Positions 14,733-51,383 of a DNA stretch of 64,000 bases are shown here, in pieces; position 1 is the stretch's first letter, and the number at the start of each line of letters is the position of its first letter. A program made the position numbers and the translations under genes. Under the pieces are notes generated by a model. The model did no database searches, was not told the DNA's origin, and saw only the letters and a list, made by a program, of their open reading frames with translations. Source of the DNA: Candidatus Woesearchaeota archaeon (GTDB lineage Archaea; Nanobdellota; Nanobdellia; SCGC-AAA011-G17; PNOQ01); the NCBI GenBank assembly GCA_964344655.1, contig CAYFOF010000001.1:159773-223772 (forward strand), read 5' to 3'.

Positions 14733-17700
14733 TTGGTTTATAAGAAATATATTTATAGAAAGGGGAAGAAATTTGGTCCGTACTACTTCAAAAGTGTTAG
14801 AGAAAAGGATGGATCTGTTAAATCTGTTTATTTAGGAAAAAAACACCCCAACTATAATTTATTTGTTTTAATTGGAGTTATTGGAATTGCTTTATTATTA
14901 TCTTTAGTGGGTTTTGTTTCTTATAATGCATTTGTTGTTACAGATGAAATTATTTCTGAAGAAGGAATTTCTGATGTTGTTGAACAGGAAGAAGAAATTG
15001 TTGAAGAAGAAGTTTTAGAAGAATTGCCTGAAGAAGAGGTTGTTGAGGAAGAAATTGTTGAAGAACCCCCTGAAGAAGAAATTATTGAAGAATTAATTGA
15101 TGAAGGCATAATTGATATTGAAGAAGAGTCAATAAGTATTGAAAAAGAAGTTGTTGTTGAAGTAGTAAATGAAACTGAAATAAATATTTCTGAAGATGAA
15201 GTTGTTGAAGAAAATGTTACGGAAGAAAATATTAATGAATCTATTATTGAAGAAGATAGAGAAATTCAAATAAATGAAACTGAGATTAATGTAACTGAAG
15301 ACAATAAAACTTTAGTTAATATTACAGAGATTAACGAGAGTAGATCTATAAATGATTCTATTATAATAAAACCATTAAATCTTACTCAAGAAAATTATAC
15401 TTTAGAAATTGTTGAAATTGTTTCTCCAGTTAGAATTAATGAACCTGTGAAAGTTGAGAAAATAATTACAGCAGATAAGGTTGTTAGTGGAATTAATATT
15501 GATTTACCTTCTGGAGCTTCTGATATTTCTATTTTAGATACTTCTGATGAAGTTAAAATTGGTTTGGATGGAAGAAAAGTAAGAGAAGGCTCTGGAAATT
15601 TGGTTACAGGAAATGTTGCTCTTGATTTTGAAGGAAGCTCTTTCTTAGATTTTTTGAAAGATATTTTTAGATTTACTGGTTTTGTCGTTTATGAAGAAAA
15701 TAATAATGTTATTATAAAAGACCCTGTGAAAGAAGTTAAAGTTGAATATTATTTGCCTGGTCCAGTTTCTATTGAAAATGATTTGGGGAATGGATTTAAG
15801 GAGATTTTTATTTCAAGTGATATAAATTATACTAATGTTAGTGTTTATTCTAATATTGGAAATGTAGATGGCCATGTCAATGTTAGAGATTCTTTAGGAA
15901 AAGAGATTGCATACATTGGAGAAGATTTAGATGGAGATGGAAATGTTGATTATATCGAATGGATTTCTGCTACCTCTGAGAATAATTATACAGTTAGTAT
16001 TACTATTTTGAATTTCCAGAGTTTTCCAGTTGTTGGTTTAAATTGGACTGTAATGTTTAATACAACTGGCGTTGCCGATTTGAGAATTACTCCTGTGAAC
16101 GATACTACTTGGGGGATTGTGGGAGATGCTAATGATTTGATGTTTTTGGATGTTCGTTGTGGGGATACTATTATGGATTCTTATTGGGAAAATGGTTCTA
16201 TTGTTGTGAGTAATTATTCTTGTAATGAGACTGGAGTTGAATCTAGTAGAGTAAGAACTTCTGGAGGACATTATTTGGAATTTGATTTTGGTGGACAAGT
16301 TGCTCATGCTCAAAATTCTGCGGTTTGTGGACAATATCTCAATTCGGACACAACTTTGACTGGAGATTTAATTAATTGTGGAAATCCAGGATTAGGAGTT
16401 CAATTTAGTCAAGGAGATTTTACAGTTGATTGTGCGGGATTTACTATAGATGGAACTAAGACAGGATATGGGTTTTTCTTACAAAATGGACATAACGTTA
16501 CTCTGAAGAATTGTACTATAACTGAATTTGCATATGGGATTTATAGTAATGGAAATGCATATGGAAATTTAATAATTAATAATACTATCCATAATAATTC
16601 AGATCGGGGTATTATTTTAACAGATGGAGACTGGATTAATATGGAAAATAATTCTATTATTGATAATGTTATTTATGATACTGATACTGGGAATTCTGGA
16701 ATAGAAATACAACGGGGAAGAGGATATAACATTTCTGGAAATCATATTTATGATGTAGATTTGCATGGAATCTATAATTATTATGTCTATAATTCTACTG
16801 TTGCATATAATTTGATAGAGGATACTGTTAGTTCACAAGGAAGTGGAATTAGAGCATATAGGAATGAAAATGTTACATACTATGGAAATAATATTACAAA
16901 TCCTGCAGACTATGGATTGAGAATTGAGGGTACAAATAATAGTGTTTTTGATTCAAATATTATTACGGGATCCGGAGATATTGGGGTTTATTTTTATTCC
17001 GCCGCCTCTGAAAATGTATTAAAAAATAATGATATTTCTAACATGGATTCAAGTTATGGAATTTATCTTATTCATACTAATACTCAAAATAATGTTATTG
17101 CAAATAATAGTATTTATGGGAGCCCTTTAAGTGGTGTTGCTGTTGGGTTGTGGAACTCTGCTGCTGGGTCTGGAAATGTTATTGCAAATAATAGTATTTA
17201 CGAAAATACTCAAAGGGGAATTTTTACTGTTACACCCGACACTTTGATTTATAATAATGATATCTATAATAATACTATAGTTGGGATTTATGTCTATAAA
17301 GGAACCGGACCAGATTCTACTGGAACAAATATTAGTCACAATAGGATTTATGAAAACACTCAACAAGGAATTTTTACTGCTGCTGTTAGTGGGATTATAA
17401 TTGAGTATAATAATCATACAGATAATTGGGAATCTGCTGCCTATGGAGGCAACATTCAAATTGCAAATACAGATGATTCTATACTTAGGGGGAATTTAAT
17501 TAGTGGTGGAGGCCACATGGGGGTAAGAGTTTATGGAACTCATACAAATAATACATGGGATAGCAATATTATTGCAAATAATAGTCAACAGACTAGTTAT
17601 CCGGAAGTTTATTTTTGTGAATCAACTCCTAGTACTGGATGTGCAAATAACACCTGGATAGGCAATACTCTTGATTCGACTGGAGGAATAGGAAATAATG

Positions 17701-26577: not shown

Positions 26578-29226
26578 TTATGCCTTCTTTTTTCTTCTTT
26601 TCCTTTTTTTCTTTCTTATAATGGAGAAAATTAGTAAAAATAAGAGTATAGAAACTACGAATGGCCCGAAATGTTTTATTAGTTTGATGTAATATTCATT
26701 AAATTCTTCAGTCGTTTTATCTACAAGGTCTTTAAATTCTTTAATTGGGGTTTCTTCTTCTATTGGAATCTCTTTCTCCTCTGTCGCTTTTTGTATAACT
26801 TCATTTATTGATTTAATGTATATATCTGCCTTGGTTCCAATTATTTTTTCAACTTTTACTAATAAATCATATGTTTTTCCATCTAAATCGATATCGACTT
26901 TCCATTCTTCTCCTTCAGTCATATTTTTTGATTGTTTTTCTGAAGAAACAGAAACTTCCACTATCTTTCTTTCTCTGTATATGTTTTCTATTTTTAATTC
27001 ATGTTTTTCATTGTTAATATCAAATTCCAATCTTTGGTTTTCAGACATTGTTCTTTCAAAACCTTCTTCGACTGAATTATCTCTTACTGAATAACTGTTG
27101 GATCCTGAAGATGATGTATCTTCTGTGGCAGTGGGTGTTGCTGTAAGAGAGAAATTTATGTTTTTGTTTTCGGTTAAATTTATTAGAGTAGTATTTGTTT
27201 GATATCCAGATGCTTGTGCAGTTATTGTATAATTTGAATAGTTTGTTTTTGTCCCACCAGTGTTTATATAGTCTAACAATGTTTGGCGAGGGATACTATC
27301 GTTTGTAAGGTCTGAATAAATCACTCCGTCAGTAGAGTTTTTTATTGTTATGTTTGTGTTCAATACGCCCGTTGCAATGTCTAAATACCATTTTCTGGAG
27401 TAGGAAGAAATATTCTCGGAATCAACAAATTCTGTTCCATCAAATGTAACATTTATTAGGGTATTTCCTGTTGAATTTCCAGATAGATGTAAATTCCCGC
27501 CGACTGTTGTATCTTGAATTGTGTTGTTAAATGCTCCAGTTCCTTCGGGTCCGAGAACTAAATCCCATCTAAATATTAAATCTCCCGTAACATTATTGCT
27601 ATAAAAATTTTCTCCCATTACATTATCGTGCAATATTAAATCTCCGATTATGGTATTATTATATGCAGTGTTATTATATGTATCGTGAAGTGAATAAAAT
27701 ATTCCTCCTTTCATTGTATTATTATACATTGTGTTGTTGAATGCACCCCATTCAAATAAAAATCCAAAGTCCATATCTTCCATTGTATTGCCATGAACGG
27801 TTACATTTGTAGAATTTCCAGTAAGCATTATCCCATGTGCTGCAGCTACTGTACTATTTCCTGTGTTGTCATAAATGAATCCATCTGAAGTGTTTTTAGA
27901 TACGGAGATACAATAATATGTTGCATTGCAAGTGTTGTTAAATACATTAAAATCTTCTGTAAAGTAAACATCCATTGCATTGTTAAGAAGATCTTCTTCT
28001 AGATAATTATTAAAAATATTGACATTATATGTTTTTTCTGTAACGTTGTGTCCTGTTTTTAGATAAGATGTGTAAAGATTATTATTTGAAAAGTTAGTAT
28101 TGTTTGCACCTTTTAATGTAATTGATACGTTGTAAAGATTATTTCCATCGTAAGTAGAGTTGTAGTGTTCTGAATCCATTAATAAATTAAAAAATACATT
28201 GTTGTTTATGTTTGCATTGTAGTTGTCCCAGATTTCAATGTCAAAATCATTGTATACAGTTGAATTAAATTCATTATTTGATATGTTGAAGTTGTAAGAA
28301 TCTCCGTCTCCTGAAACATGGTAAGCGTAAAATTTGTCTATGTCTCGGAATTTAGAATTTACAACTGTTAAATTTTTTGGAGAATCGAATCCTAGTGAGA
28401 AAACAGACCCAGTTACATTAATCATTGTTAGGTTGTCTATATTTATATCATGTGCGTCTGGTAAATAATATATTCTTCCAGTAGAATTTACATATTCTGT
28501 ATTTACTAGGTTTGTGTTGTTTCCCCAGAATTCTAATCCTTGACTTTGGCCTGTAAAATATGAATTATTGATTGTCATGTTGTTTGGTTTTAAAGTCAAT
28601 TTTCCTGTAGAGTCTGTGAAATTTAATCCACTAAGATAAACATCTTCTCCCTGGAAAGTGATTGCTGTTGATCCAGTATAGGTCCAATTTTCCACTCGAA
28701 TATCTCCTACTGTAGATTCTAAACTTAATCTTCCTTCTATGTTATTTAATGTAAGTCCGCTAGCAGACCCATATACTTGAAGATATGAGGTTCCTTCAAA
28801 TGTAACGTTGTTAAATACTGTTCCGTCAACTCCTGTGAATAATGCAATCTTTTGGCTGTTTGACCTTACTGTTATATTGTGCATTGCAAGATTGGCTCCT
28901 GAACCAAAAAGTGCCCAATTATTTGATGCACTCCAATCTTCAAAAATACAATTTTGAATAGTTATGTCTGATACTGTTGCAGCATATCCCCATTTATTTG
29001 GGGCGGTGTTTGATGTATTCCCAAAAATTGTGTATCCATTACAATCAAGTACAGAATTTGATCCTCCTGAAAAGCAATTGGAATCTAATGCTGCATAAAC
29101 GTCTGATGTTAAATCATAGTTAGTGCTAGAAGATAATGCTTGGCAGGTTGAAATATCTACTGCATCAGATTCAGTCGACAATAATGAAATCAAAATCAAT
29201 ACAACTATTAGCAAACCTCTTTTCAT
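26578..29226 (-). CDS. right-handed parallel beta-helix surface protein (882 aa) with a C-terminal TM anchor
   Basis: Signal peptide. Long arrays of about 22-aa N-rich coils (NNxF.N..., NTxYNNT). A WYLDI carboxypeptidase-regulatory-like domain, as in the 1763-aa adhesin. A DIDLDGKTYDL domain. TM plus RKKKRKRRKKKA. Confidence 0.7.
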   Translation of the reverse strand: MKRGLLIVVLILISLLSTESDAVDISTCQALSSSTNYDLTSDVYAALDSNCFSGGSNSVLDCNGYTIFGNTSNTAPNKWGYAATVSDITIQNCIFEDWSASNNWALFGSGANLAMHNITVRSNSQKIALFTGVDGTVFNNVTFEGTSYLQVYGSASGLTLNNIEGRLSLESTVGDIRVENWTYTGSTAITFQGEDVYLSGLNFTDSTGKLTLKPNNMTINNSYFTGQSQGLEFWGNNTNLVNTEYVNSTGRIYYLPDAHDINIDNLTMINVTGSVFSLGFDSPKNLTVVNSKFRDIDKFYAYHVSGDGDSYNFNISNNEFNSTVYNDFDIEIWDNYNANINNNVFFNLLMDSEHYNSTYDGNNLYNVSITLKGANNTNFSNNNLYTSYLKTGHNVTEKTYNVNIFNNYLEEDLLNNAMDVYFTEDFNVFNNTCNATYYCISVSKNTSDGFIYDNTGNSTVAAAHGIMLTGNSTNVTVHGNTMEDMDFGFLFEWGAFNNTMYNNTMKGGIFYSLHDTYNNTAYNNTIIGDLILHDNVMGENFYSNNVTGDLIFRWDLVLGPEGTGAFNNTIQDTTVGGNLHLSGNSTGNTLINVTFDGTEFVDSENISSYSRKWYLDIATGVLNTNITIKNSTDGVIYSDLTNDSIPRQTLLDYINTGGTKTNYSNYTITAQASGYQTNTTLINLTENKNINFSLTATPTATEDTSSSGSNSYSVRDNSVEEGFERTMSENQRLEFDINNEKHELKIENIYRERKIVEVSVSSEKQSKNMTEGEEWKVDIDLDGKTYDLLVKVEKIIGTKADIYIKSINEVIQKATEEKEIPIEEETPIKEFKDLVDKTTEEFNEYYIKLIKHFGPFVVSILLFLLIFSIIRKKKRKRRKKKA

Positions 29227-31932: not shown

Positions 31933-32106
31933 TTACGCTTTAGTTTTTGTTCTTCTCCAGCTTCTTTTTCCTGCACTGAATCTTGAAGGGTGGATTTTCT
32001 TTCCAACTCCAGCTATTTTTGGAATTATCCAAAATGGTGCCCATTTAGATCTTTTTCCTAATTTTCCTAATCTTCTTTTTTTTGCTGGTGCTATGTATCT
32101 TGTCAT
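31933..32106 (-). CDS. rpl39e: 50S ribosomal protein L39e (57 aa, not in ORF track)
   Basis: Hand translation gives MTRYIAPAKKRRLGKLGKRSKWAPFWIIPKIAGVGKKIHPSRFSAGKRSWRRTKTKA. Its ATG overlaps the S19e stop. Confidence 0.8.
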   Translation of the reverse strand: MTRYIAPAKKRRLGKLGKRSKWAPFWIIPKIAGVGKKIHPSRFSAGKRSWRRTKTKA

Positions 32107-32507
32107 TTTTTATCTAATAAGGATTTTCCTTTTGCAGTAAGGATTCTTCCTTTGTGGGCTCCTTTTTCTGTTTGTTCAATTAATTTTGCAGATTCAAGTT
32201 GTTGCAAAATTGTTCTGATTATTTTTCCTGAACCCTTGAAGAATTTTTCTGGTTTATGACCTCTATTCTTTTTTCCGCCATATTTTACTTTTAATTTATT
32301 TACTCCAATTGGTCCTAGTAAGTATATTTTTCTTAAGATTGAAGCAGCTCTTAGGTACCACCAATTTGCATCTGCAGGAGGTCTTTCTCTAGCTCTGCTT
32401 GTTTTAACGAAATTTGCCCATTCTGGCTTAGTGATTTCCTTAATTTCTTTAAGTTTTTTAGCAGTATTATCAATTAATACATTTGTTTGTGTGTCTTGTA
32501 TTTTCAT
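32103..32507 (-). CDS. rps19e: 30S ribosomal protein S19e
   Basis: WWYLRAASILRKIYLLGPIGVNKLKVKYGGKKNRG..SGKIIRTILQQLE matches the S19e pattern. Confidence 0.9.
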   Translation of the reverse strand: MKIQDTQTNVLIDNTAKKLKEIKEITKPEWANFVKTSRARERPPADANWWYLRAASILRKIYLLGPIGVNKLKVKYGGKKNRGHKPEKFFKGSGKIIRTILQQLESAKLIEQTEKGAHKGRILTAKGKSLLDKK

Positions 32508-32610
32508 TTTTTAAACCTGTAGATTTTGTGACAATATTCTTTTTAAAAAGGTTTCTATTTTAATTTTTAGTTTTGGTTAAGTTTTTATATTATATTTTTT
32601 TGTTATTATT

Positions 32611-33774
32611 ATGAAAAGTATGGTGATATTTGTAGTTTTACTTATTTTGTTTAGTAATGTTTATGCTGTTGAGGATGTTGATATTCCTGAAACTTTTGAA
32701 ACCACTCAAAAAACTATTGGAGAAAGCGAAACTACATATTTCTATGCTGGTTCAAAGTTATTGGCTAGTAAAGATTCTTCTGGTTTGAATTATCATTATC
32801 AAGATAGATTGGAGAGTGATATTGAAAGTAAGTCTCTTCCTTTTGGTCAGTCTTTGAAAGTTGGAGAGAGATTTTCATTTACAGGGAAAGAATTGGATGA
32901 AGATTTATATTATTTTAATGCTAGATATTATGATTCTTCTTTGGGAAGATTTACTTCAGTTGATCCTGTTCCTTCTCAACCTGCCTATCAATATGTTGCA
33001 AATAATCCTATTAAGTATGTTGATCCTACTGGAACAGTTATGGATGAACCTCCCCACCAAACTGCAAGAGATAGGCAAATATTAAGGGAATCAGATAAGG
33101 TTGATGATGTAGTTTATAGGGAGCCTGTAGATATTGTGGCTTTTGATGAATATGGTATGCCGCTCTCTGGATATTATCTTAAATATGAAAGTGGGAGAAC
33201 TGAATATCAAATAGATCCTAATGTTAAACTTGGTGTTGAACCACAATGGTTTACTGTTGAATTGGCTCTTGGTGCTTCTGTCGGATTTAAAGGGGCAGGA
33301 TGGAGTCTTAGTGGATTATCTAGGAGAGCTCTTGGCGCGATAGGTCTTCCTGATCCAGTTGATACTGCTAAAACTATTCGTTTATTAGCATCGGATATTA
33401 ATCCTAATTGGTGGAGAATTGTTGATCCTTCTGCTGAACCGGGAAAAAGAGTATTTGATGTAGACACTGAGACTCTTGTTAAATATTTAGATGATACTGG
33501 TCAATTACCTGCGGGAGATGGAGCTATCAATGTTTATATTGAATTTACTGATTTGAATCACAATGTGGCAAGGCGGCAAACAGAACTTTTAAGATCAGAT
33601 GAATTAGCTAGAGAATTAAACCCTCTTTTAGATCCCTCTCTTAGGCCTTCATTTAAAACAGATTTTATTAGATTGATTAATCCAGAAGATAGACTAGAAT
33701 CTTTGACTAAATCATTGGGACGTCCCGTTAAAGATGAAGTTTCTGGTCTTGCGAGATTCCCTTCTCAAAATTAA
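32611..33774 (+). CDS. secreted RHS-repeat-associated-core protein with an unknown C-terminal (toxin-like) domain
   Basis: Signal peptide. YFYAGSKLLASKD..YHYQDRLES..PFGQ..FSFTGKELDEDLYYFNARYYDSSLGRFTSVDPV..YQYVANNPIKYVDPTG is the RHS core terminus. About 240 unrelated residues follow. Confidence 0.7.
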   Translation: MKSMVIFVVLLILFSNVYAVEDVDIPETFETTQKTIGESETTYFYAGSKLLASKDSSGLNYHYQDRLESDIESKSLPFGQSLKVGERFSFTGKELDEDLYYFNARYYDSSLGRFTSVDPVPSQPAYQYVANNPIKYVDPTGTVMDEPPHQTARDRQILRESDKVDDVVYREPVDIVAFDEYGMPLSGYYLKYESGRTEYQIDPNVKLGVEPQWFTVELALGASVGFKGAGWSLSGLSRRALGAIGLPDPVDTAKTIRLLASDINPNWWRIVDPSAEPGKRVFDVDTETLVKYLDDTGQLPAGDGAINVYIEFTDLNHNVARRQTELLRSDELARELNPLLDPSLRPSFKTDFIRLINPEDRLESLTKSLGRPVKDEVSGLARFPSQN

Positions 33775-35135
33775 ATTTTAGTTATTTTTTGACCTTCTTT
33801 TGTATCTTTTATTTCATAACCCAGAGAATTAATTTTTTTTCTTAGTTTATCAGATAAATCCCAATTTTTATTTTTTCTTGCCTTCTCTCTTTCTTTTGTT
33901 AGTTCTTTTATCTCTTTGGGAATTGGCTTTTTTTTTGTTTTAGTTAAATCTAATGCTAAAACCTTATCAAATTCTTTTATTAATGATAACTTTTCTTTCC
34001 CCCCCAAATTGGATTTAAGAACATCTTGCAATATCGCTAAAGCTTTGGGCATGTTCAGATCTTGATTTATTGCATTTAAAAATTCTTTTTGATATTTTTT
34101 TGTATTGCCTTTTGAAGTGTTGTCTAATTCTTTTATTTTATTCTTTATTTTTTGTAGTGAATTTTTTGCTGAGTTTAATGCATCTAATGTGAAGTTTAAT
34201 GGCATTCTATATTTTGTTGTTAAACATAGATATCTATAATCCATTGGAGAGTATCCTAGTTCTTCTAATTCTGAAATAGTGTATAATCCTCCTTTAGATT
34301 TAGAAACTTTTTTTCCTTTTGATAGTAAGAATGCTCCGTGTATCCAATAGTTTACGAATTTTTTTCCGGTACTTGCTTCTGATTGTGCTATTTCGTTTGT
34401 GTGATGGATTGGGATGTGATCTTCCCCTCCTGTGTGGATGTCAAAATTTTCCCCCAAATATTTCATAGACATTGCAGAACATTCAATATGCCATCCTGGA
34501 AATCCAGTGCCCCATGGAGAATCCCATTCTTGTTGTCTTTTTTCTTCTTTTTGAGAAAATTTCCATAAAGCAAAATCTGTTTTATTTTTTTTCTCTTTTA
34601 GTTCTATTCTTTTTCCCGCTTCTAATTCTTTAATATTTAATCGTGCAAAATTTGCATAATTTGGAAACTTAGAAGTGTCAAAATAAATTCCGTCTGAAGT
34701 TTTATATGTAAATCCTTTTTTTTCTAGTTTTTTTATTAAGTTTATTTGTTCTTTTAGGTGTTCTGTTGCTTTAGTCCATTTTGTTGGAGATTGAATATTT
34801 AGTTTTTTAAAATCTTCTTTGAAAATTGAAAGATAATGATTTGCAATGTCTGATGCTTTTTTACCTTCTTTCTTTGCAGCCTTTTCCATTTTATCTTCGC
34901 CTTCGTCTGCGTCTGAAGTTAAATGGCCTACATCAGTAACATTCATAATTTGCTTTACTTTTAATCCATTGTATTCTAAAACTCTTCTTAAAATATCTGA
35001 AAAAATGTATGTTCTTAAATTCCCTATATGCTGATACCAGTAAACTGTGGGTCCACAAGAGTATATTCCTGCTTCTCCTTTTTTAATTGGTTTAAATTCT
35101 TCAAGTTTCTTGGATAAGGTATTATAAATTTTCAT
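33771..35135 (-). CDS. cysS: cysteine--tRNA ligase
   Basis: [17 protein letters not shown] (HIGH region), a KVSKSKG (KMSKS-type) motif, and CysRS length and order. Confidence 0.9.
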
Positions 35136-35176: not shown

Positions 35177-35710
35177 TTATGGTTCAACTTCAACAGATAA
35201 TGTTTTCTTTAATTGATATCCTGTATCTGCTACTGTTAAACTTGTAATTTCAACTTTACATCCGCCATGTCCGAGAGTTGTTTCTTTTGTTGTGTCTACC
35301 CTTAGTTTCATTTTTGCGTTTGCACCAGATCTTAAAGTGAATGTGTCAGATGTCGTTGATTCTGTATCTACAAATTTACAATCTAAGTCTATTCCATTTT
35401 CAACTCTTGCTGTTCTTGCTTGAAAATCGAGGGTTTCTCCCTCTAGATTATAAAATATTATTCCTACTTCTGCAGAGCCATCAGTATCCAATGTTGCAGT
35501 ACTTGGAACTATTTTCAATAAGTCTGTTGAATCGGAAAATAGATTTTCTATTTCTTGATCAGACATTTTAAATGCTCTATCTGTTAAATCCATAACATCT
35601 CCCAAGCTAGATCTTACCCATGTTAGTCCTAAAGTAAGTAAAGTTATTCCAATAACAATAACGATGATAGTAGTCATAGAAAGTTCAATTGCACCTTTTT
35701 TTGATTTCAT
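35177..35710 (-). CDS. class III signal peptide (archaeal type IV pilin-like) protein
   Basis: MKSKKG|AIELSMTTIIVIVIGITLLTLGL has a basic N-terminus, Gly at -1, Glu at +3 and a roughly 20-aa hydrophobic helix. A beta-rich domain follows. Confidence 0.65.
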   Translation of the reverse strand: MKSKKGAIELSMTTIIVIVIGITLLTLGLTWVRSSLGDVMDLTDRAFKMSDQEIENLFSDSTDLLKIVPSTATLDTDGSAEVGIIFYNLEGETLDFQARTARVENGIDLDCKFVDTESTTSDTFTLRSGANAKMKLRVDTTKETTLGHGGCKVEITSLTVADTGYQLKKTLSVEVEP

Positions 35711-35756: not shown

Positions 35757-37403
35757 TTATTGATTATTTGGAGTGTAATCTATAACTAATTTTGGATCAT
35801 ATTGTTCTCCAGGATATTCTTTCGAGTGTAAATTTAATCCAGAAACAGTAGAGGTTATTGCAATTCCGTGAGGGATGTTTTGTATGTAGGGGGTTAAATT
35901 TATTTTAAATAATTTATTTGGGTTTTGAAAATCGTAATCTAGTATATCTAGAGGAATGTAAAATAATTGTTCTCCTATTTTTCCATGAGCGTTTCTCCAG
36001 GTTGCACTTTCTTCTGTCCAATCTGAATTTAGTTTGTGAATGTAAATTCTAAAGTCACTTAAAGATCCAGTCATGAAATCTCCGTAAAGTTGTAATTCTG
36101 CATTTGTTATGTTTGAATTTAATATTGATTGAGGGATGTTGAATTTTAGTAATGGATGTCTTTCTGTCCATGAAGAAACTCCTGCTCCAACATAATGGTG
36201 GTGTACAAATAAATCTTCTCTTTCTCCATTTACTTCATCTAAAAACTCTTCAGCTCCATCAGACCTTGTATGCCTATGGATGAATGTATCGTCTGTTGGA
36301 GTTAGCGTTATTGTTCCTGGGTCACTAGTTGCTGTGAAGTTTTTTTGATCTTGTGTTGTGTTTATTCTAGTATCATCTGTAACAATTAATTCTAATTTAT
36401 AATTTCCTTCTCCGTGATTAAAAGGAATTGTCCATGGTGGAGAATTTGGAATGTTTTGTACTATGCTTATTAATTCTTCTTGTCCATTCGGATGTACTTT
36501 TATTATCTTTCTTGTGTATGTTGGATCAAAACTTTGTGTTGGTCCTAAAATTCTATTTGTTGGATCTGGAATAAATCCAAAATAACTTTCTGAATCTTGA
36601 GAAGTTGCATTTATTATTAGTTGGGGGCCGTTTAGTATTGGGGTGTTTAGATTTAATCGTGGCCTGTTGCTTGAAATATTAATTCCTAATTGTGTGTTTA
36701 ACCATAATGGTTTGTAATTATCCCAAGTATTTTCTGGACCGATTAAATCCTCTAATAATTCTTGAGTTGGTGTGAATCCAGATGCGGTTGAAAGTATTTT
36801 TAGGATTGGAGAGGAAGTTCCTTGAGATAGTGCGAATAGTCCTACATTAAGTCCTATTGTGTAGGTATTTGTTAACTCTCTTGTTGTTTTTGTTCCATTG
36901 TAAAGTATTCCTGCTCCTGTGTTAACAGATGCTTGAGGAACATAATTTTCCATGAAATTTAGTAATGCTTGTTTATCTGATGTTCCAAAAATAGTATTTA
37001 ATGTAAAATTAGAAACTTCGGTTGAAATCAAATTTATTATATGAGATAATGATTTTGAATTATGATCGAATGATTTTATTGTTGGAAGATGATTTGGTGC
37101 AGAAACTATGAATATGTCATATGAATTGTTTTCACCGTTTACATAGTTTATTGTTGCGTTTGGAATTGGATTATTGTTTTGATCTTTTACTGTAATTTCA
37201 ACTCTTGATCCATCGTCGTTAAATGTTGAAAATCCACTTTGATTTGTTATCTCTTGTTGATGTTCAAGATGTACGTTTGGAAGATTTTCTGTGGGGGTTG
37301 TAGGGTTTCCATCTTTTCCACAACTTGTTAAAGTCATTAATGCACTTAATGTAAGAATTCCGAGTTTTTTTCTTCCTGATTTTACTATTTTTTCTAAACT
37401 CAT
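35757..37403 (-). CDS. lipoprotein with a C-terminal DNRLRE-like domain
   Basis: Lipobox-like LTSCG. The C-terminal region DDTFIHRH..RHPLLKFNIPQSILNSNITNAELQLYGD resembles the DNRLRE domain pattern (D.yv....r.lLkFdl..ip....I..A.L.Ly). Confidence 0.45.
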   Translation of the reverse strand: MSLEKIVKSGRKKLGILTLSALMTLTSCGKDGNPTTPTENLPNVHLEHQQEITNQSGFSTFNDDGSRVEITVKDQNNNPIPNATINYVNGENNSYDIFIVSAPNHLPTIKSFDHNSKSLSHIINLISTEVSNFTLNTIFGTSDKQALLNFMENYVPQASVNTGAGILYNGTKTTRELTNTYTIGLNVGLFALSQGTSSPILKILSTASGFTPTQELLEDLIGPENTWDNYKPLWLNTQLGINISSNRPRLNLNTPILNGPQLIINATSQDSESYFGFIPDPTNRILGPTQSFDPTYTRKIIKVHPNGQEELISIVQNIPNSPPWTIPFNHGEGNYKLELIVTDDTRINTTQDQKNFTATSDPGTITLTPTDDTFIHRHTRSDGAEEFLDEVNGEREDLFVHHHYVGAGVSSWTERHPLLKFNIPQSILNSNITNAELQLYGDFMTGSLSDFRIYIHKLNSDWTEESATWRNAHGKIGEQLFYIPLDILDYDFQNPNKLFKINLTPYIQNIPHGIAITSTVSGLNLHSKEYPGEQYDPKLVIDYTPNNQ

Positions 37404-46893: not shown

Positions 46894-47736
46894 ATGAAAA
46901 AGAGAGGGCAGGTAACTATTTTTATTGTATTGGGAATTATCGTTTTAGTTGTGTTTGGTTTGTTATTTGCTCTGCGTGTTGATTTTGTTGAAGATCTTTT
47001 TGGAGGGGAGTCTGGAAGGCAGTTTGATTCAGTAGATATTGAGGCTGTTAAAGATTCTATATCTTTTTGTGTTGAAGGTTCTTTATTAGACGCAGTTAAT
47101 CATGTTTCTAATCGTGGTGGATATTTTTCACCAATTAATTCTAGTTTTTATGCGAGAGATGTTTATGGGGTTTTAGTTACTTATGCATGGACTTCTGATT
47201 ATGGTACAAGGTTGCCTAGTTTGACGGGATTGGGAGAACAAATTAAAATTTATATGGATGATTCTGATAATCGTGCTTTGATTGAAGAGTGTATTGATAA
47301 ACAATTAGAAATTTATGAAGATAGTTGGGATTTTGAAAATGTAAATGAATTTGAGTTTAAGGTTCCAAGAGTTTCTGAAAATAGTATTAAACAAGAAATA
47401 ATTTATCCTGCTAGCAAAGTTTTATCTGTTAAAGGACGTAATGGCGTAGCAACAACAACCGAAGTTTTGGCAGAACTAGATATCGCTTTGGGTCAAGCAC
47501 AAAATGTTGCGAATGAAATTGTAGATTGTTTTAACGGAAATGGATTTAGTAATGAATATTGTAATCAAGAAGGAGTTCCGTTTAGAATGAGTGTTTATAA
47601 TCTTTTAAATTATAGAAATGTGATTGGAATGTTAGAAGGAGATTGCGGAGGAGAATGTTTAGAATGTTATATCTTGAAGATTCCTGTTGAGGATGGAGAT
47701 GATATTTCATTTAATGTTAATATGAAAACATGTTAG
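46894..47736 (+). CDS. class III signal peptide (pilin-like) protein, 280 aa
   Basis: MKKRGQ|VTIFIVLGIIVLVVFGLLFAL is a prepilin-type N-terminus. The C-terminus is Cys-rich (CGGECLECY). Confidence 0.6.
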   Translation: MKKRGQVTIFIVLGIIVLVVFGLLFALRVDFVEDLFGGESGRQFDSVDIEAVKDSISFCVEGSLLDAVNHVSNRGGYFSPINSSFYARDVYGVLVTYAWTSDYGTRLPSLTGLGEQIKIYMDDSDNRALIEECIDKQLEIYEDSWDFENVNEFEFKVPRVSENSIKQEIIYPASKVLSVKGRNGVATTTEVLAELDIALGQAQNVANEIVDCFNGNGFSNEYCNQEGVPFRMSVYNLLNYRNVIGMLEGDCGGECLECYILKIPVEDGDDISFNVNMKTC

Positions 47737-50700
47737 GAATATATAAAAAAGGGATTTCAGTATTTATGTCTTTTTTAATAGTGTTTTCTACATTAGGTTT
47801 TGTTTCTGCTGATAGTCCTATTCCAGTTAGTTGTTGTTTAGATGATGGACAAGGAAATTTTTGTAGTACTTTAGAAGATGGCCAAGGTCCTGAAGTTTGT
47901 TCTTCTGAAAATTTAAGAAGTGGTTCTTGTGATTTAATTTCTCAGTGTAATGTTGGAACTTGTGTTCCTCCTGATGGCGGGGCGTGTTTATCTGATTATA
48001 CCAATGAACAATGTGATTCTATTGGTGGAGAATTTTATAATGCAATTGAAAGAGATGTTCCTGCTTGTCAATTGGGTTGTTGTGCAGATAGTTTAGAGTG
48101 TGGAATAATGCAACAACAAGAATGTAATGGAAATTTTGTTAGTTCTATAACTGATCCTGGGGCTTGTTTATTAGAATGTAGGCCTGAAACTACTGGATGT
48201 TGTGTTGAATCTAATTCTTGTAGTTATCAAACTGCTGAAGATAGTTGTAGTGGAGAATTTTTGCCTGATCAATTTTGTTATGAAAGAGATTTTTGTAATG
48301 AAAGATATGAAAGTCATGCGTATACTTATTTAGGTGATGCTAGAATTGTTCCAGAATCTGATATTGATGTTTATTGGTATGACTCTAATGGAAATATGGA
48401 AGAAAGAGTTGGAGATGTTGATAGACGTACTGGAGAAGTAGTTCCAATTCCTGGAGTGCCAGAAGGATTGCAATTGAAGGGAGATTGTGATTATCCTGAT
48501 GAAATTGCTTTTGATGCCGATGGTGCAAAAGGAGGGAAAGAAAATGCTTATTGTAAATCAACTGCGTGTGTTGTTGAATGTGAGAATTGTGAACCTTCCT
48601 CTTTCAAAAATGGAGAAACTATTTGTTTGAATATTTTTGGAGGACAATATAGTAACGAAAAGAGAAGTACTGCTTTGAGAGAATATATTTTATCTTGTGT
48701 TAATGGAGAGATACAAGCAGATGAATTAATTGAAGAAAGATCAGAAAGAATTTGTATTGATGATTCTAAAGATTTTAATGGTGTTGAGAGAATGTATGCT
48801 CGTGCTGATATTGAGAACAGATGGGAAGAATGTTTAACTTGTGGAGAGGGTGGAACATTTGATTGGTCTGGATATATTCCTGGATCTGGTGGATTAATTT
48901 TATCAGGGTTAGGAGATTGGTGTGCATCTGAAGATGGTGGTTTATTTGGTTCAGTACCTGGAAATGTTGGAGGTTCTGAAAAGTGTGAAGACTTTGGTGA
49001 TGATCAAGGTGTTGAAATGTGTTATTATGATTCTGATTTATGGTCTCCGCTAGGAAGTTGTAACCCTATTTATCCTCCTGCGAAAAGTTCTGAAGAACAA
49101 TGTGGAAAATGTGGTGGCGGAGGAGATAGTACCACAAATTTATGTACTGAACAAGAATGTAATGCTTTAGGAGATTGTCAATTTGAAGAGAGTGGCGCAT
49201 TTAGTAGTGGATTGTTAGCTTCTGGTGCATTAGCTTTAGGAAGTGCAGTTGGAGTTACCACATTAGGATATGCTTTTTGCCAATCTGTTGCATTTATTGG
49301 TTTTGAAACTTGTACTGTTGCTGTTGGACAGACTGTAACTCAATGGTTATTTGGAAGTAGTTTGTATTGGGGAGTAGCTGGAATGGTTTTAGGTACTGCT
49401 GCTGCAGATCAAAGCGATTATCAAGAATTAGATGAGTATGGTTATTCTTTCGAAAAAGAAAATGGAAAATATGATTTGGCTGCAATGATATCTTTTGCTC
49501 GTGCTTTAGAGTATGCTTTAGGAGATGAAGAGTCAGTAGAGTTAGGAGAAGATTTAGGAGAGATTGATGGTGGAAATCCTTGGGTTGCTGGAACTGCTGG
49601 AGGGTTATTAAATCTTGCTGCATATACTTTAACTAAAATTAATACTTTTGATGAAATATTATTTAATGTGGGTAGTTCATCTATACAAGATCTTGCTTTT
49701 GCGTTTGGAATTCCAAGAACTATTGGTGCTAAATTTTTCCAAGCTATGCAAAGTGTTGCGGGTATTTCTACGATATACTCTGTTTCTGAATCTATGAATA
49801 CTGGAAGTTGTGTTCCTGAAACTGCGTATACTAATAGTGATCATTGTGGAGAATGTGGTGGTGCTGAAGGACAATTTTTCTGTACTAGAGATAGGTGTGA
49901 TATTTTGGGTGGTGATGCAGGATATTGTCATTTTGAACCTAAGTTAGATGGAACTGACGATGGGATTTGTTTGCCTTCTGATCCTACAGATACAACTCCT
50001 CCAGAAATTACATATATGAATTTGAAGATGCATGATTTAGATAATTCTTTAACTGGAGAATTTGAGGTTGATGGAAATCAAATGACTACAGATTCCTTTG
50101 CATGGTTTGATGCTGTTCAGGTTAAAATAAATCTTACAACCGATGAGCCTTCAAAATGTGCAGCTGCGTTTGAAAGTGAATTAACATATGAAAGCATGGC
50201 TAGTGGAGAATTGAAGTTTGATGGATTCTTTGAAAATAGTCATGAGATAATGTTTAATTTAACATCTCAACAAAAAATGGATGGAGAAAATACTCTTTAT
50301 ATTAAATGTACTGATGTAAGTGGTGCAGCTACTGGTGAGAATGATGATAGCAATTGGATTAAAATGATATTTGGGGAAGAACCAAATGATGTTCCTCCGG
50401 AAATAATAGATATAGATCCTGCTGATGTTTTGAATTTGCCTGCTGGTACTTCAGAAGTTGAATTAAAACTAATTGTTGAAGATAGGAGAGATGAAGTTAC
50501 TGAATGTAAATATGCTGTTGCAGATGTTACAAATTATAACGATGATGGTGGAGAGGTTACATATGTTGCTAACTATGAAGATTTAAATCAATTGTTTACA
50601 AGAACTGGTACAAGAAGTTGTCCTGGATCTTCATTGCCTGATGATTGTACAGAATTTAGAGCAAATATTGTATTTGATGAATCAGAATCTCAAGAAATAG

Positions 50701-51383
50701 ATTTAACAGATTTAGGTTATGAAGAAAATGGAGTTGTTTACCCTTACACATTTGGATGTAAAGATAGTTATGATAATCCTACTTTAGTTGAGTATTCATT
50801 TTCAGTTTATCCTGGATATGAAATGGATATTGTTTATCCGGAAGAAGGAATGCAAATTTATGACAGTACACCAGAAATAAATATTACTTCAGATGTTCCG
50901 GTTTATTGTAGGTATAAACTTGATAGTGCAGAAAATTGGACTGATTTGAATGCTGGTGTTGGATTAGAATTTTATAATAATGAAGTGGAAGATTCTTTGA
51001 GTGCTAGTGTTGCGGGAGTTTCACATAATTTGGTTGTTAATTGTAGAGATTTAGGAAATGATGTTGTTGAGAAGAGTGTAAATTTCTTTGTATTGTCTGA
51101 TGCCGCGGCTCCAGCAATTACAAGAGTTTATACAACTAGTCTATTTGGAAGTGGAAAATTACATATAGAACTAAATGAAGATGCAGAATGTAAATATGAT
51201 ACTTCTGAAAGTGATTTTAATTTTGAAGATGAAGGCACTTTAATGAATGCAGTTCCTCCTGTTTATAGTGTTGATGATAGAATTTTATCAGATCATCAAA
51301 CTGCAATATGGGATTCTTTCAAATATTATATTAAATGTAGAGATGAATGGGATAATGAAGGAAGTTATACTATCTATCCATAA
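47730..51383 (+). CDS. 1217-aa cysteine-rich surface protein with an internal hydrophobic Gly/Ala-rich region and four C-terminal Ig-like modules
   Basis: N-terminus YKKG|ISVFMSFLIVFSTLGFVSA (Sec or class III signal). About 60 Cys fall in the first 460 aa. Three C-x2-CG-x-GG motifs. A hydrophobic block spans residues 487-690. Repeated ..(E/Y)C(K/R)Y.. Ig-like modules follow. Confidence 0.6.
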   Translation: MLGIYKKGISVFMSFLIVFSTLGFVSADSPIPVSCCLDDGQGNFCSTLEDGQGPEVCSSENLRSGSCDLISQCNVGTCVPPDGGACLSDYTNEQCDSIGGEFYNAIERDVPACQLGCCADSLECGIMQQQECNGNFVSSITDPGACLLECRPETTGCCVESNSCSYQTAEDSCSGEFLPDQFCYERDFCNERYESHAYTYLGDARIVPESDIDVYWYDSNGNMEERVGDVDRRTGEVVPIPGVPEGLQLKGDCDYPDEIAFDADGAKGGKENAYCKSTACVVECENCEPSSFKNGETICLNIFGGQYSNEKRSTALREYILSCVNGEIQADELIEERSERICIDDSKDFNGVERMYARADIENRWEECLTCGEGGTFDWSGYIPGSGGLILSGLGDWCASEDGGLFGSVPGNVGGSEKCEDFGDDQGVEMCYYDSDLWSPLGSCNPIYPPAKSSEEQCGKCGGGGDSTTNLCTEQECNALGDCQFEESGAFSSGLLASGALALGSAVGVTTLGYAFCQSVAFIGFETCTVAVGQTVTQWLFGSSLYWGVAGMVLGTAAADQSDYQELDEYGYSFEKENGKYDLAAMISFARALEYALGDEESVELGEDLGEIDGGNPWVAGTAGGLLNLAAYTLTKINTFDEILFNVGSSSIQDLAFAFGIPRTIGAKFFQAMQSVAGISTIYSVSESMNTGSCVPETAYTNSDHCGECGGAEGQFFCTRDRCDILGGDAGYCHFEPKLDGTDDGICLPSDPTDTTPPEITYMNLKMHDLDNSLTGEFEVDGNQMTTDSFAWFDAVQVKINLTTDEPSKCAAAFESELTYESMASGELKFDGFFENSHEIMFNLTSQQKMDGENTLYIKCTDVSGAATGENDDSNWIKMIFGEEPNDVPPEIIDIDPADVLNLPAGTSEVELKLIVEDRRDEVTECKYAVADVTNYNDDGGEVTYVANYEDLNQLFTRTGTRSCPGSSLPDDCTEFRANIVFDESESQEIDLTDLGYEENGVVYPYTFGCKDSYDNPTLVEYSFSVYPGYEMDIVYPEEGMQIYDSTPEINITSDVPVYCRYKLDSAENWTDLNAGVGLEFYNNEVEDSLSASVAGVSHNLVVNCRDLGNDVVEKSVNFFVLSDAAAPAITRVYTTSLFGSGKLHIELNEDAECKYDTSESDFNFEDEGTLMNAVPPVYSVDDRILSDHQTAIWDSFKYYIKCRDEWDNEGSYTIYP

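Follow-up and report, generated by a model that had tools for sequence, protein, structure and literature searches.

A shell-less RHS-core gene family with variable C-terminal domains in DPANN archaea

The DNA analysed here, a stretch of 64,000 nucleotides (hereafter the window) from a Candidatus Woesearchaeota archaeon (assembly GCA_964344655.1, contig CAYFOF010000001.1, positions 159,773 to 223,772), carries on its plus strand an intact open reading frame (ORF) of 387 codons (32611–33774, ATG start, TAA stop, read from the sequence), which encodes only the terminal piece of an RHS protein, placed between a predicted signal peptide and a C-terminal domain (CT) for which no homologue was found. 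The gene (below, the query) is one member of a large family, named and defined in this work as mini-RHS, in which a module of about 100 aa is homologous to the RHS-associated core, retains its autoprotease-type motifs and is maintained by selection, while the tips attached to it are polymorphic and, in the closest pair of paralogues, begin at a sharp DNA breakpoint. The gene stands in a housekeeping context and has no linked immunity gene. A first-pass annotation of the same DNA had interpreted it as a minimal RHS core of polymorphic-toxin-like design in a housekeeping neighbourhood without an adjacent immunity gene, and as a whole this interpretation is supported, subject to three corrections that are given where they arise. 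We lean slightly towards regarding the product as a Sec-exported, plug-only RHS polymorphic effector, which would cleave itself after the DPTG motif, direct its orphan CT at non-self targets and depend on a 5' cassette for the exchange of its tip.

A conserved RHS end module with exchanged tips

The protein of 387 aa consists of four parts, namely a signal peptide (aa 1–19), a linker (aa 20–41), the RHS module (aa 42–141) and the CT (aa 142–387). The ORF, its parts and their coordinates, as they had been described in the first-pass annotation, were all recovered from the sequence (Table 1). The Sec signal proposed there is likewise borne out by a 19-residue Kyte-Doolittle mean of 2.15, by the presence of a V-x-A site and by its retention across the family. 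Cleavage is predicted after VYA, but the segment might also act as an uncleaved signal anchor. Residue I25 of the linker is kept in at least 90% of the sequences in alignments A1 and A2. Apart from the signal peptide and these 22 acidic-linker residues nothing precedes the RHS module, and neither a delivery domain (PAAR, VgrG-binding or TcB-binding) nor an N-terminal plug is present there. The query, which serves as the reference of alignments A1–A3, has all elements by which we define a mini-RHS protein: a signal peptide, an IPExFE linker, an RHS end module of about 100 aa that ends in DPxG at approximately aa 135–150, and a CT of about 200–300 aa.

The claim that only a terminal RHS piece is present could be verified with the TIGR03696 model (Rhs_assc_core) that had been suggested for this purpose. 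It scores 67.4 bits against a cut-off of 32.5 and covers aa 77–141 with profile positions 3–75 of 76. The full-length RHS_core model NF041261, by contrast, reaches 14.4 bits against a cut-off of 2000, and the query is therefore without a YD-repeat shell. RHS_repeat was not found in the protein with Pfam, which remained blank over its whole length. Since only about 35 residues precede the TIGR03696 match within the module, a cocoon of about 1000 aa is impossible. The core aligns with the last 55–65 or so residues of solved cores, including the mosquito SGS1 YD-shell protein, 8H8A/B, RhsA of P. protegens (7Q97), Tse5 (8CP6), YenC2 and TccC3 (PDB matches 7Q97, 8H8A/B, 8CP6, 4IGL, 4O9X and 6H6E). 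The hairpin between the 'YHxD.LGS' and 'PFG' segments of canonical sequences is missing from the subfamily of the query, as is evident from its comparison with L075 of Methanosarcinales and L014 of Chloroflexi.

The cocoon of Rhs and TcC proteins is sealed by a plug made up of the ~95 C-terminal residues, which also functions as an aspartyl autoprotease; it has been described for residues 1263–1357 of Rhs1 (PMC8636562). The conserved module of the query (aa 42–141) has about the size of this plug alone. The cleavage motif of Rhs proteins is PxxxxDPxGL (PMC8765631, PMC8636562), and in RhsA the catalytic residues are D1324 and D1346, with the cut four residues past the second Asp (PMC8765631). 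D118 and D138 of the query, two catalytic-type Asp about 20 residues apart, fall on the DP motifs of the solved cores in the PDB alignments, and R105, D118, P133, D138 and G141 are invariant in 120 family members, whose module alignment contains 16 invariant and 31 near-invariant columns. By analogy, an autoproteolysis site is predicted just after the motif, around T142/V143.

Across six genes the N-module has a ratio of nonsynonymous to synonymous substitutions (dN/dS) of 0.07–0.40, with 0.13 at a dS of 0.40 for the nearest paralogue pair. The module is therefore maintained as a protein and not merely as a DNA handle. This finding bears on the idea that the gene is without function at present and in decay, having been left over from a full-length RHS gene as an orphan rhs tip or truncated pseudogene. 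In bacteria, displaced tips are frequently met in the form of short 'RHS repeat-associated core' ORFs, and several short bacterial ORFs without obvious starts do occur among the RHS-core relatives. The query, however, is an intact frame of 387 codons in AT-rich DNA (by our own estimate, the chance of such an open frame at 30% GC is about 1e-14) with its own ATG, signal peptide and TATA-like box. Its GC content at third codon positions (GC3) of 0.168 resembles that of the other genes in the window (mean 0.183), the dN/dS is well under 1, at least 276 protein clusters have the entire architecture in common with it, and no full-length rhs gene lies nearby. Taken with these points, decay appears very improbable.

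The extent of the family was assessed by a search over 5.8 billion proteins, which returned at least 276 protein clusters sharing the layout of the query; details are available for 120 listed matches, on which the following description is based. These proteins are 223–496 aa long, align to the N-terminal 22–59% of the query only, with E-values down to about 1e-82, and derive mostly from Woesearchaeota, Nanoarchaeum or sources labelled 'archaeon', although the family also occurs in Aenigmatarchaeota (L005, L068). For 106 of the 120 the terminal DPxG of the module falls before aa 170, in most cases close to aa 140, and the CT behind it measures 240 ± 35 aa; these 106 CTs form 64 clusters, 45 of which are singletons.

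How abruptly conservation ends is best illustrated by the closest paralogue, P0002 (DNA locus L001), which is located on a contig of 296,304 bp, as is the query. The two N-modules are 94% identical in protein, but no relation is detectable past DPTGTV. At the DNA level the identity is about 90% up to DPTGTV, and the sequences are unrelated beyond: blocks of 30 nt are approximately 0.8–1.0 identical throughout 32583–33032, the block 33003–33032 is completely so (1.00), and from 33033 the value drops to 0.57 and then to background. The polymorphic-toxin-like design that had been proposed is upheld by this combination of near-identical N-modules, unrelated tips and a breakpoint exactly after DPTGTV. 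The conserved 5' cassette likely represents a handle for homologous recombination. Several paralogues reside on contigs of equal recorded size, for example in groups of three (296 kb), five (346 kb) and four (93 kb) genes.

All DPANN loci among the best matches encode short proteins, with the exception of L007, which runs into a contig end, and the sole long archaeal RHS protein found is that of Methanosarcinales L075 (1544 aa). The bacteria Steroidobacter (L021), Burkholderiales (L033), Peribacteria (L056) and Exilibacterium (L070/L079) also have short ORFs that combine a signal-peptide-like N-terminus with an RHS core and a CT, and the layout is therefore not exclusive to archaea. Two mini-RHS proteins (P0005 and P0009) are labelled 'Cryomorphaceae bacterium', and relatives of the CysS protein encoded next to the query, at 59–64% identity, are labelled Patescibacteria, Parcubacteria or Paceibacterota; such bacterial labels on close relatives probably reflect misbinned DPANN contigs in public metagenome-assembled genomes (MAGs). 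A further variation is seen in P0102, P0113, P0118 and L011 (4647–5918), where an insert of 100–150 aa composed of I-N-x-T repeats, which are N-glycosylation sequons, separates the signal peptide from the RHS module and suggests a glycosylated stalk. Archaeal polymorphic toxins are considered rare (PMC3482391). Our literature search yielded no description of shell-less RHS proteins in any organism, nor of RHS/YD repeats in DPANN or Woesearchaeota; an earlier mention is possible, most likely in Makarova et al. 2019 (mBio), but apparently the mini-RHS family in DPANN archaea has been undescribed so far.

Orphan tips and the immunity gene question

With 246 aa, the CT of the query agrees well with the unrelated domain of about 240 aa that had been described after DPTG, and it is without homologue in any database searched. 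A word-indexed search of 5.8 billion proteins returned only the query itself, an exhaustive phmmer search of 1.84 billion representative proteins yielded none, no match was obtained in Pfam, NCBIfam, PHROGs, PADLOC or PDB, and the comparison with 105 sister CTs (phmmer --max) gave nothing significant (best E 0.07, P0003). Four long repeat proteins were rejected as homologues, as they matched only through a strand motif of about 22 aa (LPxGDGxxxVYxxF) that is repeated 5–15 times, which we judged to be score inflation from repeats. The corresponding CT motif QLPAGDGAINVYIEFTDLNHNV (aa 298–321, nt ~33502–33573) resembles the 'LPxGDGxKTVYVKFKDxAGN' strand motif of the long Ig-like repeat proteins P0121, P0123 and P0124 and adjoins residues (about aa 251–300) for which AlphaFold2 predicts a small beta-alpha unit with its best, though still modest, confidence. 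The mean pLDDT of 48.9 for the full-length protein (51 aligned N-modules) and 38.9 for the CT alone is too low for fold searching. The domain is acidic (net charge -11) and Arg-rich in a Lys-rich genome, its R/(R+K) of 0.66 exceeding all values among 53 other window genes (maximum 0.56, mean 0.26).

Two earlier statements on the composition of this tip call for comment. The first concerned a Gly-zipper-like hydrophobic patch. A Gly-rich stretch does exist at aa 219–237, but its maximal 19-residue hydropathy of 0.97 lies under the usual threshold of 1.6, and a transmembrane helix was consequently discarded. The patch has a marginal likeness to patches in P0003 (E 0.07, where the adjoining GLPxP(V/D)D is included) and P0002 (E 0.28). 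At a database size of 106 sequences the P0003 match may be a hint but falls short of significance. The second was that the tip is more GC-rich than the surrounding DNA, as expected for a swapped toxin tip. The composition profile confirms the difference (CT 0.378, N-module 0.312, mean of the window genes 0.300 with sd 0.034), and the level of the CT is attained by only 5% of the window's coding segments of that length. The excess is, however, confined to codon positions 1 and 2 (0.48 versus 0.36), whereas the GC3 of the CT is 0.175 against a genome mean of 0.183, and its Arg codons are the native AGA/AGG. It is thus an effect of the Arg/Gly/Ala/Pro-rich amino acid composition, and other CTs of the family have the same GC pattern. 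Given the native GC3 and Arg codons, the GC-rich tip is no mark of recently acquired foreign DNA, and this explanation is ruled out; the composition could go back to an old import or be due to functional constraint. For the swapping of tips, the proper evidence is the comparison between paralogues given above.

More can be learned from the sister tips, although Pfam recognises the CT in only about 12 of the 120 members. The recognised domains comprise FlgD-Ig/Por_Secre_tail beta-sandwiches, PT-TG (in two proteins), one YkuD L,D-transpeptidase, DUF4846 and a tannase-like domain; classic Tox/Ntox nuclease, deaminase or Imm families of Pfam gave no match in the 120 members. A zincin-type HExxH motif occurs in 25 of the 106 CTs (24%), where chance predicts 0.58 CTs, in its typical hydrophobic context and in many unrelated clusters, none of them known to Pfam (P0008, P0015-17, P0025, P0028, P0029, P0032, P0035, P0038, P0039, P0044, P0046, P0051, P0055, P0056, P0069, P0071, P0075, P0078, P0082, P0091, P0099, P0108 and P0111). 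Judged by this motif, many sister CTs look like zinc peptidases. The term 'toxin' is nevertheless unproven for the query protein, whose CT is an orphan and whose sister CTs are mostly unannotated.

The beta-sandwich tips fit a different explanation as well, according to which the protein is a surface-displayed recognition or adhesion protein: the CT would bind to the host-cell surface, the RHS remnant would serve as a stalk or anchor, possibly uncleaved as in teneurins, and the variability would reflect host-range adaptation of an episymbiont. We regard this as unlikely, yet a number of observations agree with it. Besides the FlgD-Ig or Por_Secre_tail-like sister CTs, these are the N-terminal NxT-repeat stalks of P0102, P0113, P0118 and L011, the lack of a linked immunity gene at any locus examined, the short CT motif LPAGDGAINVYIEF, which resembles a strand motif of Ig-like surface repeats, and the homologous teneurin region, which is an uncleaved plug (PMC8765631). 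On the other hand, the invariance of both catalytic-type Asp and of PxxxxDPxG in 120 sequences is unexpected for a purely structural stalk, the quarter of the CTs that resemble zinc peptidases and the YkuD protein represent enzymes, and apart from the N-terminal hydrophobic segment no cell-anchoring signal is recognisable.

Whether adhesin or effector, the gene has no immunity gene beside it: its stop codon overlaps that of the convergent cysS by 4 nt, just as the first-pass annotation had noted, and no small ORF is available. A second copy, an orphan tip or other RHS-related sequence was searched for, and none was found in the 64-kb window. The lack of room by which the absence had been explained is real at the query locus, but the absence is not an accident of crowding, as no conserved linked partner was found at the other family loci examined either. 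The mini-RHS genes of close relatives are single genes among housekeeping genes, with a KsgA-like methyltransferase and a convergent gene that likewise overlaps by 4 nt at the P0002 locus, methionine aminopeptidase and PolB at the P0006 locus, convergent rpS10 and EF-1alpha at the P0007 locus, and a ParA-like gene and HisRS at the P0014 locus. Even within a single CT cluster the downstream genes differ, and include a LamG protein (P0078), a convergent PIN/T2SSE ATPase (P0075), a convergent ELP3-like radical SAM protein (P0035), and Rpb7, Spt4, S24e and S27 (P0111). With four different downstream genes behind four members of the cluster, nothing is therefore co-inherited with the tip. An overlap of 4 nt between the stop codons of a mini-RHS gene and a convergent housekeeping gene was observed at four family loci in total (window 33771–33774, L001 7176–7179, L165 4673–4676, and the P0035 locus on a 29-kb contig of JGI 3300072015) and may reflect compact AT-rich genomes or the mode of gene insertion.

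A few arrangements differ from this picture of single genes. Tandem mini-RHS pairs are present in more distant Woesearchaeota (L006 2937–6137 and L035 2878–6263, the latter with an ORF of 113 aa on the opposite strand between the two genes), and these are the sole arrangement seen that resembles a toxin array. At L004 (6177–7510), the mini-RHS gene is followed by three small paralogues on the same strand (159, 150 and 132 aa), which have an N-terminal hydrophobic segment and a common 'GHD' motif. They are the only candidate downstream partners seen and are not conserved elsewhere.

It could be argued that the family represents a classical toxin-immunity system whose immunity is not adjacent, either because it is encoded elsewhere or because protection is achieved by co-translational export and an inactive uncleaved pro-form, and whose target would be closely related archaea in a competition among kin. 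The hallmarks of polymorphic toxins, that is, a conserved N-terminal part, hypervariable tips and multiple paralogues, are in accordance with this proposal, as are the PT-TG pre-toxin domain of two sister proteins and the fact that only 64 kb of the genome are visible. We nonetheless consider it improbable, as no neighbouring gene is common to the four loci with homologous CTs, neither paralogous tips nor related small orphan ORFs exist in the window, no Imm or Tox match of Pfam was obtained in the 120 members, and unlinked immunity would be unusual for polymorphic toxin systems (Zhang et al. 2012, PMC3482391). The sister tips offer another explanation: the substrates of secreted peptidases and of a peptidoglycan enzyme lie outside the producer or are structures not found in archaea, which would explain the absence of immunity genes.

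Locus, insertion slot and neighbouring genes

The location between ribosomal protein genes and cysS in an archaeal housekeeping neighbourhood, as initially described, is substantiated by the Pfam matches of the flanking genes (Table 1). One flank consists of rpS19e, an ORF encoding a basic protein of 57 aa without match, L31e and Cbf5, and the other of CysS, which is 60–69% identical to the CysS of Woesearchaeota, Nanoarchaeota and Pacearchaeota MAGs and thereby assigns the window to this DPANN lineage, where no species is closely represented. In the window cysS and rpS19e are both encoded on the minus strand, with the mini-RHS gene between them on the plus strand, whereas in the relative L096 the two are adjacent on one strand and about 40 nt apart (the cysS ORF ends at 2560 and the S19e ORF starts at 2601). 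Comparison of window positions 32103–35135 with L096, L111, L161, L164, L089, L092 and L099 identifies the interval between cysS and rpS19e as a variable slot, which is empty in L096 and in other relatives contains a RuBisCO-like gene and small NUDIX-, NFACT- and YhbY-like genes (identified by eye). At L099, a convergent mini-RHS gene is located about 1.3 kb downstream of cysS. A TTTATA/TTTAAA box comparable to the TATA-like box of the query is found at the same distance in seven related loci, and could be the gene's own archaeal promoter, giving rise to a leaderless or very short-leader mRNA. From this arrangement, the mini-RHS gene looks like an inserted and independently transcribed unit within a conserved gene array.

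Table 1. Coordinates of the mini-RHS gene, its parts and its flanking features in the window.
Feature	Position	Strand	Basis
Ribosomal protein S19e gene, upstream divergent flank	32103..32507	-	Pfam PF01090, E = 4.6e-49
TATA-like box TTTATATTA, 19-27 nt upstream of ATG	32584..32592	+	Read from sequence
DNA-level cassette common to paralogues (5' leader, signal peptide, RHS module)	32590..33040	+	Identity to L001 paralogue
Sec-type signal peptide (predicted), aa 1-19, MKSMVIFVVLLILFSNVYA, followed by VED	32611..32667	+	Hydropathy; conservation in alignments A1 and A2
Acidic linker, aa 20-41, with near-invariant IPE(T/L)FE motif (IPETFE here)	32668..32733	+	Alignments A1 and A2
Shell-less RHS end module, aa 42-141: two YD-type hairpins (TYFYAGSKLL, NYHYQDRLES), then core	32734..33033	+	TIGR03696; PDB alignments
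RHS-associated core, aa 77-141	32839..33033	+	TIGR03696 match
Asp118 in first DP motif (SVDPV)	32962..32964	+	On first DP of SGS1 and 8H8B; invariant in 120 sequences
PxxxxDPxG motif, P133-IKYV-D138-P-T-G141	33007..33033	+	P133, D138 and G141 invariant in 120 sequences
Variable orphan CT, aa 142-387 (246 aa), putative released effector	33034..33771	+	Homology searches negative
Gly/Ala/Ser-rich amphipathic patch ALGASVGFKGAGWSLSGLS, aa 219-237, followed by GLPDPVDTA	33265..33321	+	Sequence; hydropathy
TTAA, overlapping convergent stops (mini-RHS TAA 33772-33774; cysS, complement of 33771-33773)	33771..33774	.	Sequence
Cysteine--tRNA ligase gene (cysS), downstream convergent flank	33771..35135	-	Pfam tRNA-synt_1e, E = 2e-92, and CysS_C

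Beyond cysS, a small cluster of surface-protein genes lies near the mini-RHS gene. It comprises a gene for a protein of 177 aa with an N-terminal hydrophobic segment and no family match (35177–35710, -) and one for a protein of 548 aa with a lipoprotein-like N-terminus (…LTSCGK) and a DNRLRE/CBM96 carbohydrate-binding domain (35757–37403, -). The large proteins of the window have 1763 aa (14733–20024, +), 1217 aa (47730–51383, +), 881 aa (26578–29226, -) and 717 aa (53816–55969, +). The first of these is a parallel beta-helix protein, the second has no Pfam or NCBIfam match, and the other two have no NCBIfam match. With a GC content of 0.385, the gene for the 717-aa protein has the highest value among the other tabulated ORFs of the window.

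These large proteins were considered as shell partners of the query and rejected, since the 1763-aa protein is a beta-helix and the others lack a YD or RHS signal. They bear on the possibility that the module works in trans, the plug-only protein docking into, or oligomerising with, a separately encoded shell-like or surface partner for encapsulation or delivery. This possibility is favoured by the cocoon-buried position of the plug in all solved structures (PMC8636562) and by the fact that aa 65–141 are not confidently folded as a monomer by AlphaFold2, and very large secreted proteins are encoded in the window and at sister loci, namely the 1763-aa beta-helix protein in the window, a protein of 1904 aa at L001 and a LamG protein of 1121 aa at L083. 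The absence of YD-repeat or RHS signals from the large window proteins, however, together with the uniformly short products of the DPANN loci among the best matches (L007 at its contig end aside), the restriction of the only long archaeal RHS protein found to Methanosarcinales and the lack of any partner gene conserved beside family members, leaves little in favour of this idea, to which we assign a low probability.

Proposed mechanism and comparison with known systems

The reading towards which we lean, a self-cleaving and exported plug-only effector, can be formulated as a sequence of steps. Transcription from the gene's own TATA-type promoter would produce a leaderless or short-leader mRNA, and the predicted N-terminal signal peptide would carry the protein across the single archaeal membrane. 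The module of about 100 aa, homologous to the aspartyl-autoprotease plug of Rhs and TcC proteins, would then cut just after DPTG and thereby free the 246-aa CT outside the cell. Judging from the family-wide context, the freed CT might hit a target that is absent from the producer or not exposed by it, for instance the envelope of a host, prey or competitor cell or the proteins on its surface, and a target of this kind would explain why no immunity gene is needed. Finally, the conserved 5' cassette could act as the recombination handle through which several paralogues with different tips arise per genome.

Several points weigh against this reading. It includes steps that we infer, namely export, self-cleavage and what the CT targets and does. 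The first DP motif is degenerate, with DPVPS in place of DPxGL, and the residue after G141 is Thr in the query and M/T/R/K across the family instead of Leu or Trp. The plug is buried inside a cocoon of about 1000 aa in every solved Rhs (PMC8636562), and the confidence of AlphaFold2 is low for aa 65–141 despite 51 aligned sequences. The CT itself has no homologue and no recognisable catalytic motif (two His, no Cys and no HExxH), and it is from context only that it can be labelled an 'effector', while the Ig-like or type IX secretion system (T9SS)-tail-like beta-sandwiches among the sister CTs suggest binding rather than killing. Moreover, with only the 64-kb window in view, an immunity gene might be encoded elsewhere in the genome.

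A more far-reaching proposition, which we consider doubtful, would be that in DPANN archaea, and maybe in certain bacteria, nothing is left of the RHS toxin but its autoprotease plug of about 100 aa, and that this plug serves universally as a self-cleaving handle, both for export and for recombination, of a hypervariable and immunity-free set of extracellular effectors that act on the surface of host or prey. The autoprotease would then work without a cocoon, about a quarter of the effectors would be zinc peptidases and most would have orphan folds, and the family would constitute a principal, so far unrecognised toolkit of these episymbionts for host interaction. Little is understood of the ways in which DPANN archaea attach to their hosts, feed on them or harm them. 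The mini-RHS family is large, with at least 276 clusters, is multi-copy within genomes, diversifies rapidly and has kept only the predicted self-cleaving end of RHS while dispensing with both cocoon and immunity gene. Should the module prove able to cleave by itself, the accepted view of the cocoon as integral to RHS function would need revision and a compact self-processing secretion tag would be at hand. If the CTs act on other cells, they form a reservoir of new extracellular enzymes or toxins, most of them without known fold, and provide a concrete access to antagonism between DPANN archaea and their hosts or bacteria. If neither holds true, the family is still a well-characterised example of shell-less RHS-core genes.

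Among known systems, the type VI secretion system Rhs effectors (RhsA of P. protegens, Rhs1 of P. laumondii, Tse5 of P. aeruginosa) and the TcC proteins (TccC3, YenC2) have an RHS-associated core homologous to that of the query, whose membership in the RHS-core superfamily is established. Common to both are PxxxxDPxG, the two DP aspartates, a hypervariable CT right after the motif and paralogues with exchanged tips. In the solved proteins, however, a YD-repeat cocoon of about 1000 aa lies ahead of the core, in place of the roughly 35 aa of the query, which has no N-terminal plug and no PAAR, VgrG or TcB delivery domain but a plain predicted Sec signal. Further differences are the absence of a downstream immunity gene, the non-canonical first DP motif and residue after G141, the archaeal host and the loss of one hairpin. 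On three tested features, the cocoon, the delivery domain and the immunity gene, the query thus falls outside the canonical Rhs/TcC toxin class. Measured by the features of polymorphic toxin systems (Zhang et al. 2012), it combines a conserved N-terminal part, hypervariable CTs and several paralogues but lacks the cognate immunity gene directly downstream.

The bacterial short ORFs (L021, L033, L056 and L070/L079) resemble the query in layout, their signal-peptide-like N-terminus being followed by one or two YD hairpins, then by the core and finally by a CT of about 150–200 aa, but their cores are only 33–47% identical and retain the extra hairpin. In the WapA-type Sec-dependent RHS/YD toxins of Gram-positive bacteria, a signal peptide and an RHS core are combined with a C-terminal toxin domain that varies, and these toxins are not known to use a dedicated injection machine. 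All of this agrees with the query, which, however, has neither the long YD-repeat region of WapA nor a counterpart of its cognate immunity gene wapI. Orphan rhs-CT cassettes are found behind a full-length rhs gene, usually without a start or export signal of their own, and are followed by immunity genes. Like them, the query is a short ORF that joins the end of an RHS core to a variable CT and whose core DNA could serve as a recombination handle, but it is a stand-alone unit with housekeeping neighbours and no immunity gene. Its own promoter-like box, start codon and signal peptide and the absence of a parent gene show that it is not an orphan rhs tip. The plug of the teneurin YD-shell, finally, is a homologous C-terminal region of YD-repeat proteins that remains uncleaved inside a full shell (PMC8765631), whereas the query has dispensed with the shell and conserves the catalytic-type residues.

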